Source of the DNA: a virus
Lineage: Duplodnaviria; Heunggongvirae; Uroviricota; Caudoviricetes
Length of the DNA: 4,909 bases
Reading direction: 5' to 3' (one strand)
IMG/VR virus record: IMGVR_UViG_2703718815_000009
Positions 1 to 4,217 of this stretch are shown piece by piece (the stretch's first letter is position 1; every line of letters starts with the position of its first letter). The translations under genes and the position numbers were made by a program. Below the pieces are notes generated by a model. It ran no database searches, had not been told where the DNA came from, and was given only the letters and a program-made list of their open reading frames with translations.

Positions 1-1230
1 ATGAGCAGAGCACTTAACAAACTGAGCGATACACAGCTGAGGAAAATCAACGGCACACCCGCCCAAAAAACAGCCTTTCTTAATGACGGTGGAAACCTGA
101 GCGTCAGGCATTCAACCAGCGGCCTTTTAACCTGGTATTTCACTTACAGGGCCGGAACGGGAAGGGGGGCACCACCGGAACGCATTAAGCTGGGAAATTA
201 TCCTGATCTGAGCCTGAAATCAGCCAGGGAAAAAGCCGCCCAGTGTCGCGCATGGCTGGCTGAGGGGAAAAATCCACGTCATGAGATGAATTACACCGTA
301 CAGGAAGCGTTAAAGCCGGTAACGGTTGGCGATGCGCTCACCTACTGGCTTGAGTCGTACGCAAAGGAAAACCGTGTGGATTATGACCCACTGAAAAAGC
401 GGCTAAATAATCACGTAATACAGCACATTGGCTCTATGCCGCTGGATAAATGCGAGCTACGGCACTGGCTGGCCTGTTTTGATCGGGTGGCAAAGCAAGC
501 CCCTGTTTCCGCCGGGTTCCTGCTACAGACATGCAAACAGGCGCTTAAGTTCTGCCGGAAGCGGCGCTATGCAATCAGCAACGTTCTTGATGATATGAGT
601 GTGGCTGACGTTGGGAAAAAACCGGATATAAGCGAACGTGTCTTAAGCAATAAAGAACTGGGCGAATTATTGCAGGCACTGGACAAAAAAATATTTTCCC
701 CTTACTACGTCGCACTAATCCGCCTCCTGATTGTTTTCGGATGCCGGACAGTAGAACTGAGGTTATCGGAGATCGGCGAGTGGGATTTTACCGAAATGCT
801 CTGGACTGTTCCGAAGGAGCACAGCAAAACGAAGGTAGCCATATTCCGGCCCATACCGGAAGCGATACTGCCGTTCGTCACGCAGCTGGTGGAGCAGAAC
901 AGGCACACGGGCTTATTGCTGGGGGAAGTGAAACAGGAAACCAGCGTATCGCAGTACGGCAGATTGGTGCACAGGAGGCTTAAACACCCTCACTGGTCAT
1001 TGCATGACATCCGGCGCACCTTTACAACGATGCTGAACGATTTAGGCGTGGATCCTCACGTCGTGGAGCAGCTTACAGGACACCAGATGCCAGGGATGCA
1101 ACGAGTCTATAATCACTCCCGTTATCTGGATGCGAAACGCAATGCGCTGGATATGTGGACGGAGCGGTTAGGGATACTGGCGGGAGCACATGAAAACGTA
1201 ACCACGCTACCAGTAGCCAGAAGAAAATAA
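1..1230 (+). CDS. int: Tyrosine recombinase / site-specific integrase, P4-type phage integrase family
   Basis: 409-aa ORF ending at TAA 1228-1230. The C-terminal region has the tyrosine-recombinase catalytic pattern: HDIRRT (His-x-x-Arg box), then GHQMPGMQRVYNHSRY about 30 aa later carrying the second His and candidate nucleophile Tyr. The N-terminus (LSDTQLRK...DGGNLSV...GLLTWYFTYRAG) fits the arm-binding domain pattern of P4-like integrases. The ATG sits on the first base of the window, so the true start could lie upstream. Confidence 0.9.
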   Translation: MSRALNKLSDTQLRKINGTPAQKTAFLNDGGNLSVRHSTSGLLTWYFTYRAGTGRGAPPERIKLGNYPDLSLKSAREKAAQCRAWLAEGKNPRHEMNYTVQEALKPVTVGDALTYWLESYAKENRVDYDPLKKRLNNHVIQHIGSMPLDKCELRHWLACFDRVAKQAPVSAGFLLQTCKQALKFCRKRRYAISNVLDDMSVADVGKKPDISERVLSNKELGELLQALDKKIFSPYYVALIRLLIVFGCRTVELRLSEIGEWDFTEMLWTVPKEHSKTKVAIFRPIPEAILPFVTQLVEQNRHTGLLLGEVKQETSVSQYGRLVHRRLKHPHWSLHDIRRTFTTMLNDLGVDPHVVEQLTGHQMPGMQRVYNHSRYLDAKRNALDMWTERLGILAGAHENVTTLPVARRK

Positions 1231-1605: not shown

Positions 1606-1794
1606 GTGTTAAGCACAGATCGCTTTATACGTGAAAAAGAATGTCAGCAACTTACAGGCCTGAGCCGCTCATGTCGGTATCGCCTGGAGAAGACTGGACA
1701 ATTCCCATCACGGCGTAAACTCGGCGGTCGTTCCGTTGGCTGGTCTTTATCCGAAGTTCTGGCATGGAAGGACAGCCGCGAGGCAGTTCACTAA
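1606..1794 (+). CDS. alpA: AlpA-family phage regulatory protein (small winged-HTH activator/excisionase-like)
   Basis: 62-aa ORF with GTG start at 1606, preceded by an AAAGGGGG Shine-Dalgarno at 1594-1601. The translation LTGLSRSCRYRLEKTGQFPSRRKLGGRSVGWSLSEVLAW matches the AlpA-family pattern (TG-x-SR-x3-Y ... FP ... KLG-x-RSVGW ... SEV-x2-W). Its position directly after a P4-type integrase is typical. Confidence 0.85.
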   Translation: MLSTDRFIREKECQQLTGLSRSCRYRLEKTGQFPSRRKLGGRSVGWSLSEVLAWKDSREAVH

Positions 1795-2056
1795 TCAGGC
1801 TGGCGGCGCACCGCCGCCACCCATCCACTAACACAGAGATCTAACCATGAATACTGGATATACGCCCGAACAGGGGCGGGGCTTCGTTCGTCCTGGTGAA
1901 ACTAAAAAGCCATGTTATCGGGTATTTTCAGGCATAAAAAAAGCGGCCCCGATAAGGAACCGCCTTTCTGAACAATTAACCTGCTGCGAAAAAAATGGAT
2001 CAGTGCAGGGGAATTATATCAACCGTGTGGCGAAGCGCCACAATTGCCGGATAACA

Positions 2057-2088
2057 GGCAAAACAAAGGCGACCGCAAAAGGGTCGCC
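2057..2088 (-). terminator. Rho-independent terminator for the minus-strand transcription unit
   Basis: On the minus strand: GGCGACC (stem), CTTTTGC (7-nt loop), GGTCGCC (stem), followed by TTTGTTTTGCC. On the plus strand the same hairpin is followed by AGTGGGAAC with no U tract, so it is oriented to stop leftward transcription from the 2691 gene. Confidence 0.6.
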
Positions 2089-2154
2089 AGTGGGAACAAG
2101 GGAAAACAAAAGCATCACCAACAATGCCACATTTGCGGCTGGTGGGCAATGCAA

Positions 2155-2328
2155 TCAGTCTGGTTCAGTTCGTTGCCATACCTGCAATGAGCGCTTTTCC
2201 CTGTACTCTTTAAGGAATTGCTCAAGGGCAAAAGCACATGGCGCGAATCTTTCTGATTCATGCTCTATCTTTCTGCGTCGTCTTTTCCGTGTCGGTGATA
2301 ATGTTTTGGTCAATTCTTTATCGGTCAT
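2155..2328 (-). CDS. Hypothetical small arginine-rich protein (57 aa), doubtful; may instead be a 3' UTR
   Basis: ORF MTDKELTKTLSPTRKRRRRKIEHESERFAPCAFALEQFLKEYREKRSLQVWQRTEPD. ATG at 2328-2326 is preceded by AGGA with a 7-nt spacer. It lies 57 nt downstream of the regulator gene and about 70 nt upstream of the minus-strand terminator, so it is inside the predicted transcript. Against: it uses AGA/AGG/CGA Arg and ATA Ile codons that the neighbouring genes avoid, and no domain is recognisable. Confidence 0.3.
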   Translation of the reverse strand: MTDKELTKTLSPTRKRRRRKIEHESERFAPCAFALEQFLKEYREKRSLQVWQRTEPD

Positions 2329-2385
2329 TGTGTTGTCCTGCATAGCAATGCGCCGTAATACCTTACACCACGGCGCTGGTGATGG

Positions 2386-2691
2386 TTACTCCTGCTCTTT
2401 GGCCTTGCGACGCTGGAGTTCTTCACGCGCGACGGTGACGAGTTGCCCGATCTCCTCGGCAGCTTTAACTCCGATTTTTTCCACCTGCGCCAGCGCATCG
2501 AGCGAAGAAACCAGGGGGTTTTCTCCGCTTCCTTCTGCCTGGCGGCGGGCGATCTCACCGCGCATGGCGGTTACTATGAATCCGGCGTTGCTTTCGCCGT
2601 CCAGTTTTACGGATTCCATGCCTTCAAAAGCATCATGTGGGATACGAATTGAAATCTGTTTTGATTTGTCGTTGATAGTGTTTTTTGCCAT
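2386..2691 (-). CDS. Small putative DNA-binding regulator, possibly ribbon-helix-helix (Arc/MetJ-like) with a charged helical C-terminal tail
   Basis: 101-aa ORF starting at the ATG at 2691-2689, preceded by a strong AGGAGA Shine-Dalgarno with 6-nt spacer (the upstream in-frame ATGs lack an RBS). Codon usage is good. The N-terminus KQISIRIPHDAFEGMESVKLDGESNAGFIVTAMRGEI has the strand-helix-helix spacing of Arc-type repressors (compare Arc FNLRWPREVLDLVRKVAEENGRSVNSEIYQRVM), a fold-level inference only. The gene abuts an operator-like region with inverted repeats. Confidence 0.7.
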   Translation of the reverse strand: MAKNTINDKSKQISIRIPHDAFEGMESVKLDGESNAGFIVTAMRGEIARRQAEGSGENPLVSSLDALAQVEKIGVKAAEEIGQLVTVAREELQRRKAKEQE

Positions 2692-2713
2692 GTGCATTCT
2701 CCTAAACAAAAGA

Positions 2714-2789
2714 TGTGATTCAGTATACACAAAAAAGAATCACAAAAAATACTTGACCTGTGATTCAGTTGATTTTAATTTAAATCACA
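2714..2789. promoter_or_regulatory. Divergent promoter/operator region with two copies of TGTGATT-N17-AATCACA around a TTGACC -35 element
   Basis: TGTGATTCAGT occurs identically at 2714-2724 and 2759-2769. Inverted partners GAATCACA (2737-2744) and AATCACA (2783-2789) lie at the same offset, giving two ~31-bp sites 45 bp apart. Rightward promoter candidate: -35 TTGACC 2753-2758, 17-bp spacer, -10 TAATTT 2776-2781. Leftward -10 candidate: TATACT (reverse complement of 2722-2727). The second operator overlaps the rightward promoter spacer. Confidence 0.6.
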
Positions 2790-2814
2790 CCTCAGTAAGA
2801 GGATGTAAACGACA

Positions 2815-2848
2815 ACGCCCCGAACTGTTTGCGGCAGTAGCGGGGCGT
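2815..2848 (+). other. GC-rich stem-loop in the 5' leader of the rightward operon (ACGCCCCG ... CGGGGCGT, 8-bp stem, 18-nt loop)
   Basis: Read directly as a perfect 8-bp inverted repeat, with additional CTG/CAG pairing possible inside the loop. There is no downstream U tract, so it is not a terminator; it lies between the predicted promoter and the RBS at 2867-2870. Confidence 0.4.
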
Positions 2849-2878
2849 CTAACCAAACCGTTAAACGAGGTAACGATT

Positions 2879-3223
2879 ATGGCTGGAACACAGCATACCC
2901 AAACTCACCCTAAATTTATATACACCTTCCTGGCGGTGCACCGTGATTGCATAGCTGACGGTAAAAGCACTGTACACGTAGCCGCTGATACGCTGGTTGA
3001 TGCCTGCGAGATGCTCAATGACATGGGTTATATCTCGGCAACATGGAAAGGGCGCGAAGAAAACACGCTGTTTATTCAGAAATGCGAAAACAATTTTATC
3101 TGGCGTTTTATCGCCCTGAGCACGGCACAACCGCGCGTGATTACCATTGAGGCCACCAGCGAACAGGAAGCACGCCAGCGTGATGGTATTCGCCGCCCGT
3201 ATTCGTCAGGGGGTACGCCATGA
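2879..3223 (+). CDS. Hypothetical protein (114 aa), first gene of the rightward operon
   Basis: ATG at 2879 preceded by GAGG (2867-2870) with 8-nt spacer; stop TGA 3221-3223 overlaps the next start (ATGA). This is the only credible part of the 458-aa frame 1847-3223 in the ORF track. No domain recognised. Confidence 0.7.
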   Translation: MAGTQHTQTHPKFIYTFLAVHRDCIADGKSTVHVAADTLVDACEMLNDMGYISATWKGREENTLFIQKCENNFIWRFIALSTAQPRVITIEATSEQEARQRDGIRRPYSSGGTP

Positions 3224-3480
3224 GCAATAACACCCGTCCGGACGCAGTCGCCGAAGCAATCAAAACACTGATTGATGCGCTGATTGATATTTCTGTTATC
3301 GCAGACAAGGCGCATAAGCACGCCACCAGTGAAACAGAATATGCCGGGGCTTTCGTTCCTCACTCACTGGCTGTTATGCAACTTAGTGCTGATATGGCAC
3401 TGAATGAGGCTAAAGCCATCCTGATTGCTGATTGTGAAAATGGGGGGGGGGTATGCGTGATGATCGTTTTAATGCCCTGA
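3220..3480 (+). CDS. Hypothetical protein (86 aa); 3' end runs through the G10 tract
   Basis: ATG at 3220 overlaps the upstream stop (ATGA); GGGGG at 3208-3212 gives an RBS at 7-nt spacing. Alanine-rich and predicted helical. The last 13 codons (GGGVCVMIVLMP) lie after the homopolymer and look like out-of-frame read-through, so the true C-terminus is uncertain. Confidence 0.55.
   Translation: MSNNTRPDAVAEAIKTLIDALIDISVIADKAHKHATSETEYAGAFVPHSLAVMQLSADMALNEAKAILIADCENGGGVCVMIVLMP
3442..3451. repeat. G10 homopolymeric tract at the junction of two overlapping ORFs
   Basis: Ten consecutive G read directly at 3442-3451, encoding GGG of the upstream ORF and ending 1 nt before the ATG (3453) of the next. 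G11 would fuse the two ORFs in frame (...ENGGGGMRDDRF...); G9 would end the upstream ORF at GGGYA-stop. Confidence 0.95.
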
Positions 3481-3686
3481 AACAGGAATTTGATGGCGCA
3501 CCGGAAGATACAGATATTGCGCTGTTATGTGTTGCTGACATGGTAAAAGCTGCAAGTTTTTTACTGGAAACCGCCGAACATTCAGGAACGGGTAGCGATA
3601 TTCTCAATATTGCGTCGGACTATGCGGAATATGTGGCAGAGGCGCGTTACAGAAGAAAATTCCCGGAGAATGTAAGCCATGTGTGA
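3453..3686 (+). CDS. Hypothetical protein (77 aa); possibly the C-terminal half of a frameshift-split or slippage-controlled gene
   Basis: ATG at 3453 immediately after the G10 tract; the 5' G residues of the tract (3442-3445) could act as a Shine-Dalgarno at ~7-nt spacing. Stop TGA 3684-3686 overlaps the next start (ATGTGTGA). Acidic and alanine-rich, no domain recognised. Confidence 0.5.
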   Translation: MRDDRFNALKQEFDGAPEDTDIALLCVADMVKAASFLLETAEHSGTGSDILNIASDYAEYVAEARYRRKFPENVSHV

Positions 3687-3912
3687 TATTTACAATGACA
3701 CAGTAGACCGTGCATACCGTGCTCTTGCTTACAGTGAAAACATGCTTGAAATATTGCGCTTATGGCTTGAAACGCTTGGCGATAATGAAAGAGATAAACG
3801 CAACAGCAATATTGCGACGGCGTTAATAACGCTTCTTGAGCCGGTAATAATGGAACTACAAGAAATAGACCTTTTGCACGACAGATATAAAGAACAACAC
3901 ACCGGGAAATAA
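3679..3912 (+). CDS. Hypothetical protein (77 aa)
   Basis: ATG at 3679 with GGAGA (3665-3669) upstream at 9-nt spacing; overlaps the upstream stop by 8 nt. Predicted helical (MLEILRLWLETLG...), no domain recognised. Confidence 0.6.
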   Translation: MCDIYNDTVDRAYRALAYSENMLEILRLWLETLGDNERDKRNSNIATALITLLEPVIMELQEIDLLHDRYKEQHTGK

Positions 3913-3917
3913 AAACC

Positions 3918-4217
3918 ATGAAAAAGAAAATTTCTGGCTTTACTGCCAGCGGCCCCGTTCGGCCTGAAATCCGCCCCGGCGATATTTTCCGGGATAACTA
4001 TGGCGGCACGGTAACGATTAAAGGCATTGCCGGACGGTGCGTTACTTACCGCCGTGATGGGTACGGCTATGACTGCGTGATGCCTGTTTATCAGTTCCGG
4101 CGTGATTTTTCACTGATACAGGCCACGCCATGCAAACAGCCCACCAGCAACGCAAAGGCACGGGCAAATATTCAGAAAATGAAAAACATGATTAACGCAT
4201 TCAGGGGCACAAAATGA
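3918..4217 (+). CDS. Hypothetical protein (99 aa), basic
   Basis: ATG at 3918, 5 nt after the upstream TAA, with a weak GGGAA RBS; stop TGA 4215-4217 overlaps the start of the next gene (ATGA). No motif recognised. Confidence 0.6.
   Translation: MKKKISGFTASGPVRPEIRPGDIFRDNYGGTVTIKGIAGRCVTYRRDGYGYDCVMPVYQFRRDFSLIQATPCKQPTSNAKARANIQKMKNMINAFRGTK

Follow-up and report, generated by a model that had tools for sequence, protein, structure and literature searches.

A poly-G tract of variable length at the junction of two small genes in Escherichia coli phage satellites

What is the role of a run of ten consecutive G residues placed exactly where two small genes overlap? The question is raised by a 4,909-nt stretch of viral DNA, IMG/VR record IMGVR_UViG_2703718815_000009 (the window hereafter, meaning the whole stretch that was analysed), which is the last 4.9 kb of contig LOIP01000001.1 from the E. 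coli draft assembly GCA_001607335.1 and which appears to belong to an integrative phage satellite. The run lies at positions 3442-3451, where two open reading frames (ORFs), called here ORF1 and ORF2, overlap in different frames (Table 1). A first-pass annotation of this DNA had considered that it could mark a phase-variable gene, a programmed frameshift, a recently decayed pseudogene or a homopolymer sequencing error. We report that the length of the tract varies among relatives, and that the two ORFs are independent genes. The explanation that we find the most convincing, and consider probable, is that of a slippage-prone homopolymer separating two independent, translationally coupled small genes, whose changes in length are largely tolerated.

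The run is the only homopolymer of at least 8 residues in the window. Base composition gives a chance expectation of 0.01 G10 per window, and any G10 was present in 1 of 200 dinucleotide-preserving shuffles. Inspection of the sequence bore out both the run and the 28-nt overlap described in the first-pass annotation. The ORF1 protein terminates in ...CENGGGVCVMIVLMP*, and its last 9 residues (VCVMIVLMP) are an out-of-frame tail due to the G10 length. To obtain the frame outcome of other lengths, the region was rebuilt with runs of G8 to G13. With G9, ORF1 ends in ...GGGYA-stop, exactly as had been anticipated. With G11 the two ORFs do join into one (...CENGGGGMRDD...), also as anticipated, but the product is 155 aa long and not ~164 aa. 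An outcome that the annotation did not mention is that G8 fuses the two ORFs in frame as well, yielding a 154-aa protein; this is the state found in L001, the nearest relative with a complete genome.

Tract length was then compared over 144 Escherichia/Shigella loci. These comprise an IMG/VR set of 91 junctions (90 from a pattern scan in which the flanks only were fixed, plus L001) and 53 loci from metagenome contigs, collected with the same flank scan. The comparison of orthologous loci, which had been suggested as a check, revealed lengths from G7 to G11 in isolate, metagenome and complete-genome data. Junctions of the form AAT-G(n)-TT-ATG in the IMG/VR set carried G7 (23 loci), G8 (34), G9 (18), G10 (4) or G11 (2), the remainder being one G8+T and nine interrupted runs. 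Metagenome loci had G8 in 27 cases, G9 in 12 and G7 in 10, with 4 others. In these two sets the length distribution is smooth and unimodal (7-11) with no 3-nt periodicity, and no pure tract shorter than G7 was found among the scanned loci, though the search pattern permitted such lengths. Instead of the uniform G10 that would have made this an ordinary gene overlap, the tract is polymorphic. A pattern scan of genome contigs returned 2 matches, one from Shigella flexneri and one spurious, and no cross-species survey was obtained from it.

These differences in length distribute the loci over three frame states. Two genes overlapping by 8 nt (ATGCGTGA), with an N half ending in GGGYA*, were found at 71 of the 144 loci (~49%); we call this state canonical. 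Fused genes of 154-155 aa account for 39 loci (27%), and the 28-nt overlap seen in the window for 34 (24%). The canonical frame is in excess (chi-square p = 2e-4, uncorrected for phylogeny), which fits a mild preference or shared descent. Complete RefSeq genomes contain G7+TT (fused, 154 aa), G8+T (fused), G9+TT (28-nt overlap) and G11+TT (8-nt overlap), and all these states, split ones included, are annotated there as ordinary genes, not pseudogenes. The complete genome NZ_CP059835.1 is annotated with an overlap of 28 nt like that of the window.

How fast the run changes can be judged from the closest relatives. Locus L098 is the same element as the window, with 0 substitutions over 4441 nt, and its tract is G9. 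Among IMG/VR haplotype groups with identical +/-250-nt flanks, 6 of 10 contain more than one tract length. Taken together, these observations mean that the run changes faster than any point substitution in its kilobase-scale flanks. The haplotype with a single-T linker, to which the window belongs, has G8 in ETEC1732 (fused), G9 in five assemblies and G10 in the window and in L103; the latter is a different element, yet it also has G10+T. Several of the split and fused proteins in the protein database are each present on 30-84 contigs. As such alleles recur in dozens of independent assemblies, random consensus error is excluded as a general cause of the variation.

The idea of a slippage-prone tract is thus supported in so far as tract length truly varies, but its premise, a single gene of ~155 aa that the run interrupts, is not. 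A conceptual ORF1-ORF2 fusion matches positions 1-153 of the 154-position profile phrog_2512 (E = 2.4e-73), ORF1 covering 1-77 and ORF2 78-153. PHROGs has three families for this locus, namely phrog_2512 for the fused form, phrog_5146 for the N half only and phrog_24341 for the C half only; in the protein database, many fused proteins of 154/155 aa are found beside many separate proteins of 79, 86 and 77 aa. In the assembly collection, 73 blocks have the exact ORF2 protein called as a gene of its own, in each case preceded by an N-half gene of 79 or 86 aa, and in the poly-G group every class of N length co-occurs with every class of C length. For the 86-aa ORF1 protein of the window, an exact copy is known from a single contig, in a draft assembly. 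Nearly all loci keep both halves open, and the start Met of ORF2 is invariant in 120 of 120 fused homologues.

More distant relatives have no tract, and each half is there a gene of its own with its own GGAGG or GGGG ribosome-binding site. A search of 1.8 billion cluster representatives yielded N-half-only and C-half-only relatives of 40-57% identity, the latter beginning precisely at the residue equivalent to the ORF2 Met. N-half homologues occur alone, followed by unrelated small genes, in L105, L147, L167 and L181, and L171 is also a stand-alone N half. Other N-half genes have a different downstream partner. G-rich or GGAGG sites lie inside the 3' end of the N half. Stand-alone C-half homologues of 75-76 aa are present in L187, L188 and L190, behind Icd-like or other genes, and have caGGAGG-type ribosome-binding sites and 4- or 8-nt overlaps. 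The tract-free relatives show 8-nt overlaps (ATGCATGA, ATGAATAA) that agree with the canonical ORF1/ORF2 overlap. A search of viral contigs with the distant N half P0189 gave no confirmed relatives.

Both halves are under purifying selection whatever the frame state: the ratio of nonsynonymous to synonymous polymorphism (pN/pS) lies in the range 0.29-0.37 for either half, be the alleles fused, canonical or long-overlap, with pS about 0.3-0.4. Third-position diversity drops within ~40 nt of the run (Table 1), and it is a block of ~70 nt that is nearly invariant, not the run alone. Synonymous diversity collapses in the same way at the outer ends of both genes and at every gene boundary of the operon (window positions 3220-3686, loci L107-L186). 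Judging from these sequence patterns, the junction block behaves as a conserved cassette boundary combined with a translation-initiation region, and the small genes of the operon behave as exchangeable cassettes with conserved boundary sequences. Because the halves are independent in tract-free relatives and the boundaries are conserved, we take the fused 154/155-aa form as derived and the two-gene form with the 8-nt overlap as canonical.

As to what the two proteins do, the matches in Pfam were sub-threshold noise, NCBIfam gave no match, and a profile search of the PDB returned nothing meaningful (best E = 0.73); the PHROGs matched by both ORFs are all labelled 'unknown function'. An AlphaFold2 model of the fusion, of low confidence (mean pLDDT 54.7), has helical hairpins flanking the junction (residues 75-95, pLDDT <50), and is compatible with two modules on a flexible Gly linker. 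Two other fusions at cassette boundaries were also seen in the protein matches. P0008 (222 aa) is a single protein that runs from an upstream ORF through the N half into the C half, and P0156 (167 aa) consists of a different upstream protein followed by the C half, with Leu replacing the start Met.

How could one tract produce these forms? The G run encodes near-terminal Gly residues of the upstream gene and would also be the ribosome-binding site of the downstream gene, whose ATG follows 1-2 nt on. Slipped-strand mispairing would alter its length, and the locus is found in one of three states: the canonical two genes with the 8-nt overlap (G9+T or G8+TT), two genes with the 28-nt overlap and a 9-residue out-of-frame ORF1 tail (G10+T, as in the window), or an in-frame fusion via the Gly linker (G8+T, G7+TT, G10+TT). 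The single-T haplotype would have arisen from G8+TT when a T became G, which gives G9+T and leaves the frame as it was, the window then having gained one G and ETEC1732 having lost one. On its sequence, the G10+T of the window is an ordinary length variant, +1 G relative to the canonical G9+T allele. In E. coli, indel rates rise exponentially with run length, and G:C runs of 8 bp are already outlying hot spots (PMC8510543), so that a run of G7-G11 is expected to slip during replication; we infer that replication slippage is the origin of the length changes. Whatever the frame, ORF1 either ends within 2-9 codons or is read through the Gly linker into ORF2, which means that both modules are always encoded, and the high frequency of every one of the three states would be accounted for. 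The distribution of lengths, smooth, unimodal and devoid of 3-nt periodicity, fits mutation with weak selection. The switch would be largely tolerated rather than on/off, and translation of ORF2 presumably starts independently at the G-rich site in each state.

A role of the run in initiation is suggested by its predicted pairing to the anti-Shine-Dalgarno sequence (-11.0 kcal/mol), the strongest among the gene starts of the operon; ORF1 and alpA are likewise predicted to use G5 sites as ribosome-binding sites. In the E. coli reporters of Sharma et al., G_GG.G runs were noted to act as Shine-Dalgarno sequences (PMC4066793). The geometry of the canonical ORF1/ORF2 junction is found again in the window between ORF2 and the next gene, which overlap by 8 nt (ATGTGTGA, 3679-3686). 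At the ORF1/ORF2 junction of the window itself, the upstream stop is 28 nt into ORF2, beyond typical coupling distances, whereas the overlap is 8 nt in canonical alleles. A Rfam scan of the window detected no RNA family.

Several points weigh against a tolerated length variation between coupled genes. The independent translation of ORF2, the stability of the tailed ORF1 and the functional equivalence of the three states are presumed from sequence. The run ends just 1-2 nt from the ATG, and only its 5' part is at a normal Shine-Dalgarno spacing. The excess of the canonical frame could stem from shared ancestry rather than from selection. The 86-aa ORF1 is on a single draft contig, and the extra G could be an assembly error. 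Finally, no more than ~10% of the tracts are interrupted even though the alleles have diverged deeply (pS about 0.35), a persistence that exceeds what simple neutrality predicts and might indicate selection for mutability; for the ~90% of alleles that are uninterrupted, a ribosome-binding role, the conserved boundary block and selection for mutability are all possible reasons.

The last of these reasons leads to an alternative in which the satellite keeps a hypermutable poly-G tract under selection, so that its population mixes two-protein, fused-protein or downstream-dose states and diversifies its interaction with the helper phage or the host. Some of the features by which contingency loci are recognised are present here, with a tract of at least 7 residues by a coding region, a length that differs among close relatives and a reading frame that is altered by it. 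The persistence of the run despite synonymous Gly third positions, the lack of pure tracts below G7, the appreciable frequency of all three states in two independent data sets and a rate of change above that of any substitution in 4.4 kb all speak for such a switch. The length distribution is nevertheless what mutation alone would give, the conservation of the run is also explained by a ribosome-binding role together with the near-invariant cassette boundary, and interrupted, locked alleles exist both in split frames (among the scanned loci) and in the fused form (among the protein matches). We consider a selected switch unlikely. If it were true, slipping in a widespread family of E. coli/Shigella satellites would stochastically turn two small early proteins into a Gly-linked fusion or shift the dose of the downstream one, a form of bet-hedging towards helper or host, and the locus would be a case of phase variation based on simple sequence repeats both in an enterobacterium proficient in mismatch repair and in a phage satellite; targeted literature searches on homopolymer or phase variation in phage-inducible chromosomal islands (PICIs) and other satellites or in E. 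coli prophages found nothing relevant, and neither case reported.

The remaining alternatives concern the G10 allele itself. The real sequence could be G9, with an 8-nt overlap, and the 28-nt overlap an artefact of homopolymer sequencing or assembly in a draft; the confinement of the exact ORF1 product to one contig of GCA_001607335.1 and the G9 of the otherwise identical L098 agree with this. But G10+T is also found in an independent assembly of a different element (L103), the same frame state is seen at about a quarter of the loci and in a complete genome annotated with the 28-nt overlap, and the same copy has undergone a 17-nt deletion (see below) that is no homopolymer artefact, meaning that the lineage has real indels. 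Given L103 and the frequency of the frame state elsewhere, we hold an error to be quite unlikely, and the extra G is very probably a real variant of the strain. Programmed recoding, by -1 frameshifting or transcriptional slippage, would make the fused 155-aa protein from G10 at a set ratio. It can call on G GGG GGG, which formally fits X_XXY_YYZ with -1 as the fusing frame, on the existence of the fused family phrog_2512, and on the low-level compensatory frameshifting documented on a G7 run of the herpesvirus thymidine kinase gene (PMC5009743). Among the heptamers tested in E. coli, however, G_GG.G_GG.U is the least prone to shift (0.018% of -1 frameshifting, PMC4066793). No stable structure follows the run: the fold of 3436-3530 (-20.1 kcal/mol, z = 0.30) is equalled or bettered by 114 of 200 shuffles. 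Moreover, the bacterial transcriptional slippage documented in a review involves runs of about nine A or T (PMC5009743), the shift required is +1/-2 in canonical alleles but -1 in long-overlap ones, which leaves no single event conserved (each state having 24-49% of the loci), and ORF2 has its own conserved ATG and occurs alone in relatives. Low-level ribosomal or transcriptional slippage is possible, though not needed; programmed -1 frameshifting, which we rate as very improbable, was rejected on account of its poorly shift-prone motif class, the lack of downstream structure and the frame relation that is not conserved. Rejected as well, and most improbable of all, is a pseudogene recently derived from a single 154-aa gene by a frameshift in the run. 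The intact 154-aa ORF with G8 in L001 and the 17-nt deletion that shifts the frame of the adjacent Icd-like gene in the window copy would suit it; split states are however the majority (~73% of the loci), the two halves are intact and equally constrained by purifying selection whether the allele is split or fused (pN/pS ~0.3 in every frame class), and stand-alone homologues of each half in tract-free relatives make the fused form the derived one. Neither the frameshift nor the pseudogene option of the first-pass annotation is thereby supported.

Length variation at this junction explains how one satellite gene family came to be divided in databases among three PHROGs (one for the fused form and one for each half) and among proteins of 79, 86 and 154-155 aa. 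Such variation argues against annotating the split forms as pseudogenes, and equally against using the fused form as the reference. Since natural E. coli and Shigella populations frequently carry the G7-G11 tract, in each of the three frame states and across deeply diverged alleles, it can conveniently serve as a natural marker of how unstable a homopolymer is. Should the states be functionally different, the tract would be a candidate stochastic switch in the interactions between satellite and helper. For the window itself, the consequence is small: one extra G, an altered ORF1 tail of 9 residues and a longer overlap.

We now turn to the element that carries the tract. The rightward operon, an early one, is made of small overlapping genes (Icd-like, ORF1, ORF2, phrog_2196, DUF4222 and RepA/AAA_25 helicase), with a YlcI/YnfO-family gene divergent from it, and features are listed in Table 1. 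In the complete genome of the relative L001, genes for SSB and a major capsid protein are found downstream, and a tRNA-Pro upstream. Together with the integrase and AlpA, these point to a PICI-type integrative phage satellite, probably capsid-forming. Its packaging half falls outside the window, as the source contig stops inside the helicase gene. Of 5426 complete E. coli genomes, 1271 contain related sequence, with as many as 6 places in one genome, and the contig break is therefore probably a repeat-induced assembly break.

Table 1. Positions of the features in the 4,909-nt window.
Feature	Position	Strand	Remarks
G10 homopolymer	3442..3451	+	codes Gly-Gly-Gly near ORF1 C-terminus; 1 nt 5' of ORF2 ATG; predicted Shine-Dalgarno element
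ORF1 (N cassette)	3220..3480	+	86 aa; matches phrog_5146 and first half of phrog_2512
ORF2 (C cassette)	3453..3686	+	77 aa (MRDDRFNALKQ...), own ATG; matches phrog_24341 and second half of phrog_2512
ORF1/ORF2 overlap, long-overlap frame state	3453..3480	+	28 nt; ORF2 in -1 frame relative to ORF1
Junction block of very low nucleotide diversity	3400..3485		third-codon-position diversity 0.00-0.13 vs 0.3-0.47 in gene bodies
Integrase (tyrosine)	1-1230	+	satellite marker gene
AlpA	1606-1794	+	satellite marker gene
Icd-like gene	2879..3223	+	same operon, upstream of ORF1; family match
Small cassette, phrog_2196	3679..3912	+	overlaps ORF2 by 8 nt (ATGTGTGA)
DUF4222 gene	3918-4217	+	replication module of satellite
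RepA/AAA_25 helicase gene, 5' part	4214 to window end 4909 (= contig end)	+	replication module

The Icd-like gene of the window differs from that of the otherwise identical L098 by the loss of 17 nt after 3177 (3177-3178), a frameshift which replaces the conserved C-terminus ...QQSPDGCVMVFAARIRQGVRHEQ (...QQSP(D/A)GCVMVFAARIRQGVRHEQ; in L098, L245, L246 and L001) by ...RDGIRRPYSSGGTP. The window copy hence carries at least one genuine indel, and the deletion may be the inactivation of a toxic cell-division inhibitor. Between the YlcI/YnfO-like gene and the operon, TGTGATTCAGT is present in two exact copies 45 nt apart, at 2714-2724 and 2759-2769. The same intergenic region has, at 2754-2794, an imperfect inverted repeat (TGACCTGTGATT / AATCACACCTCA); these repeats (2714-2794) are candidate operator sites of the satellite control region. 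Just 3' of the integrase gene, at 1279-1322, three ACAACGNNGAACAA-like 14-mers with a spacing of 10-20 nt may serve as arm-type or regulatory binding sites. A perfect 12-nt hairpin (1417-1445) could be a terminator. A 458-aa open frame on the + strand (1847-3223) is antisense to the YlcI/YnfO-like gene and continues into the Icd-like gene, whose frame it shares. Its 5' part matches no family and gene callers skip it; it is most likely a chance open frame.

Which known systems does this junction resemble? Poly-G/C contingency loci are familiar in Campylobacter jejuni, Helicobacter pylori, Neisseria and Haemophilus, and some of them join or separate two adjacent ORFs depending on length. The satellite tract is like them in being a G run of 7-11 in or at the end of a coding region, varying in close relatives and setting whether there is one ORF or two. 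It differs in its host, a mismatch-repair-proficient E. coli, and in its location on a phage satellite; it has no plain OFF state, since the downstream ORF keeps its own start and predicted ribosome-binding site; and its variation is seen by comparing the sequences of different loci. The canonical allele (ATGCGTGA) also has the geometry of the translationally coupled overlapping genes (ATGA / ATGNNTGA) of phage and satellite operons, a geometry shared by the ORF2/phrog_2196 overlap of the window and by the tract-free relatives. Unlike in usual coupled genes, the predicted intragenic ribosome-binding site is here a pure, unstable homopolymer, and the overlap is polymorphic (8 nt, 28 nt or fusion).

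In the G7 'savior' indel of the herpes simplex virus thymidine kinase gene (PMC5009743), too, an indel in a G run shifts the frame, and low-level slippage may yield a product from the other frame; there, however, the shifted gene is otherwise non-functional and drug selection operates, whereas the downstream ORF of the satellite is independent and recoding is unneeded. The recoding sites of dnaX, insertion sequence (IS) elements and Shigella spa13/mxiE (PMC5009743, PMC4066793) likewise place a homopolymeric or slippery run at an overlap of two frames, but they rely on motifs rich in A/T, on stimulatory elements and on a frame relation that is conserved, none of which is found with the poly-G tract. 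The mononucleotide indel hot spots of E. coli, for instance the 8-bp G:C runs of leu tRNA genes (PMC8510543), share the organism and the mutational mechanism with the tract; they were measured at other loci, in mutation-accumulation lines, whereas the satellite tract is longer and its variants are frequent in natural populations. Length variation of a homopolymer at an ORF junction is a known kind of feature; what is new is the host and the element in which it is found, the phage satellites of E. coli.

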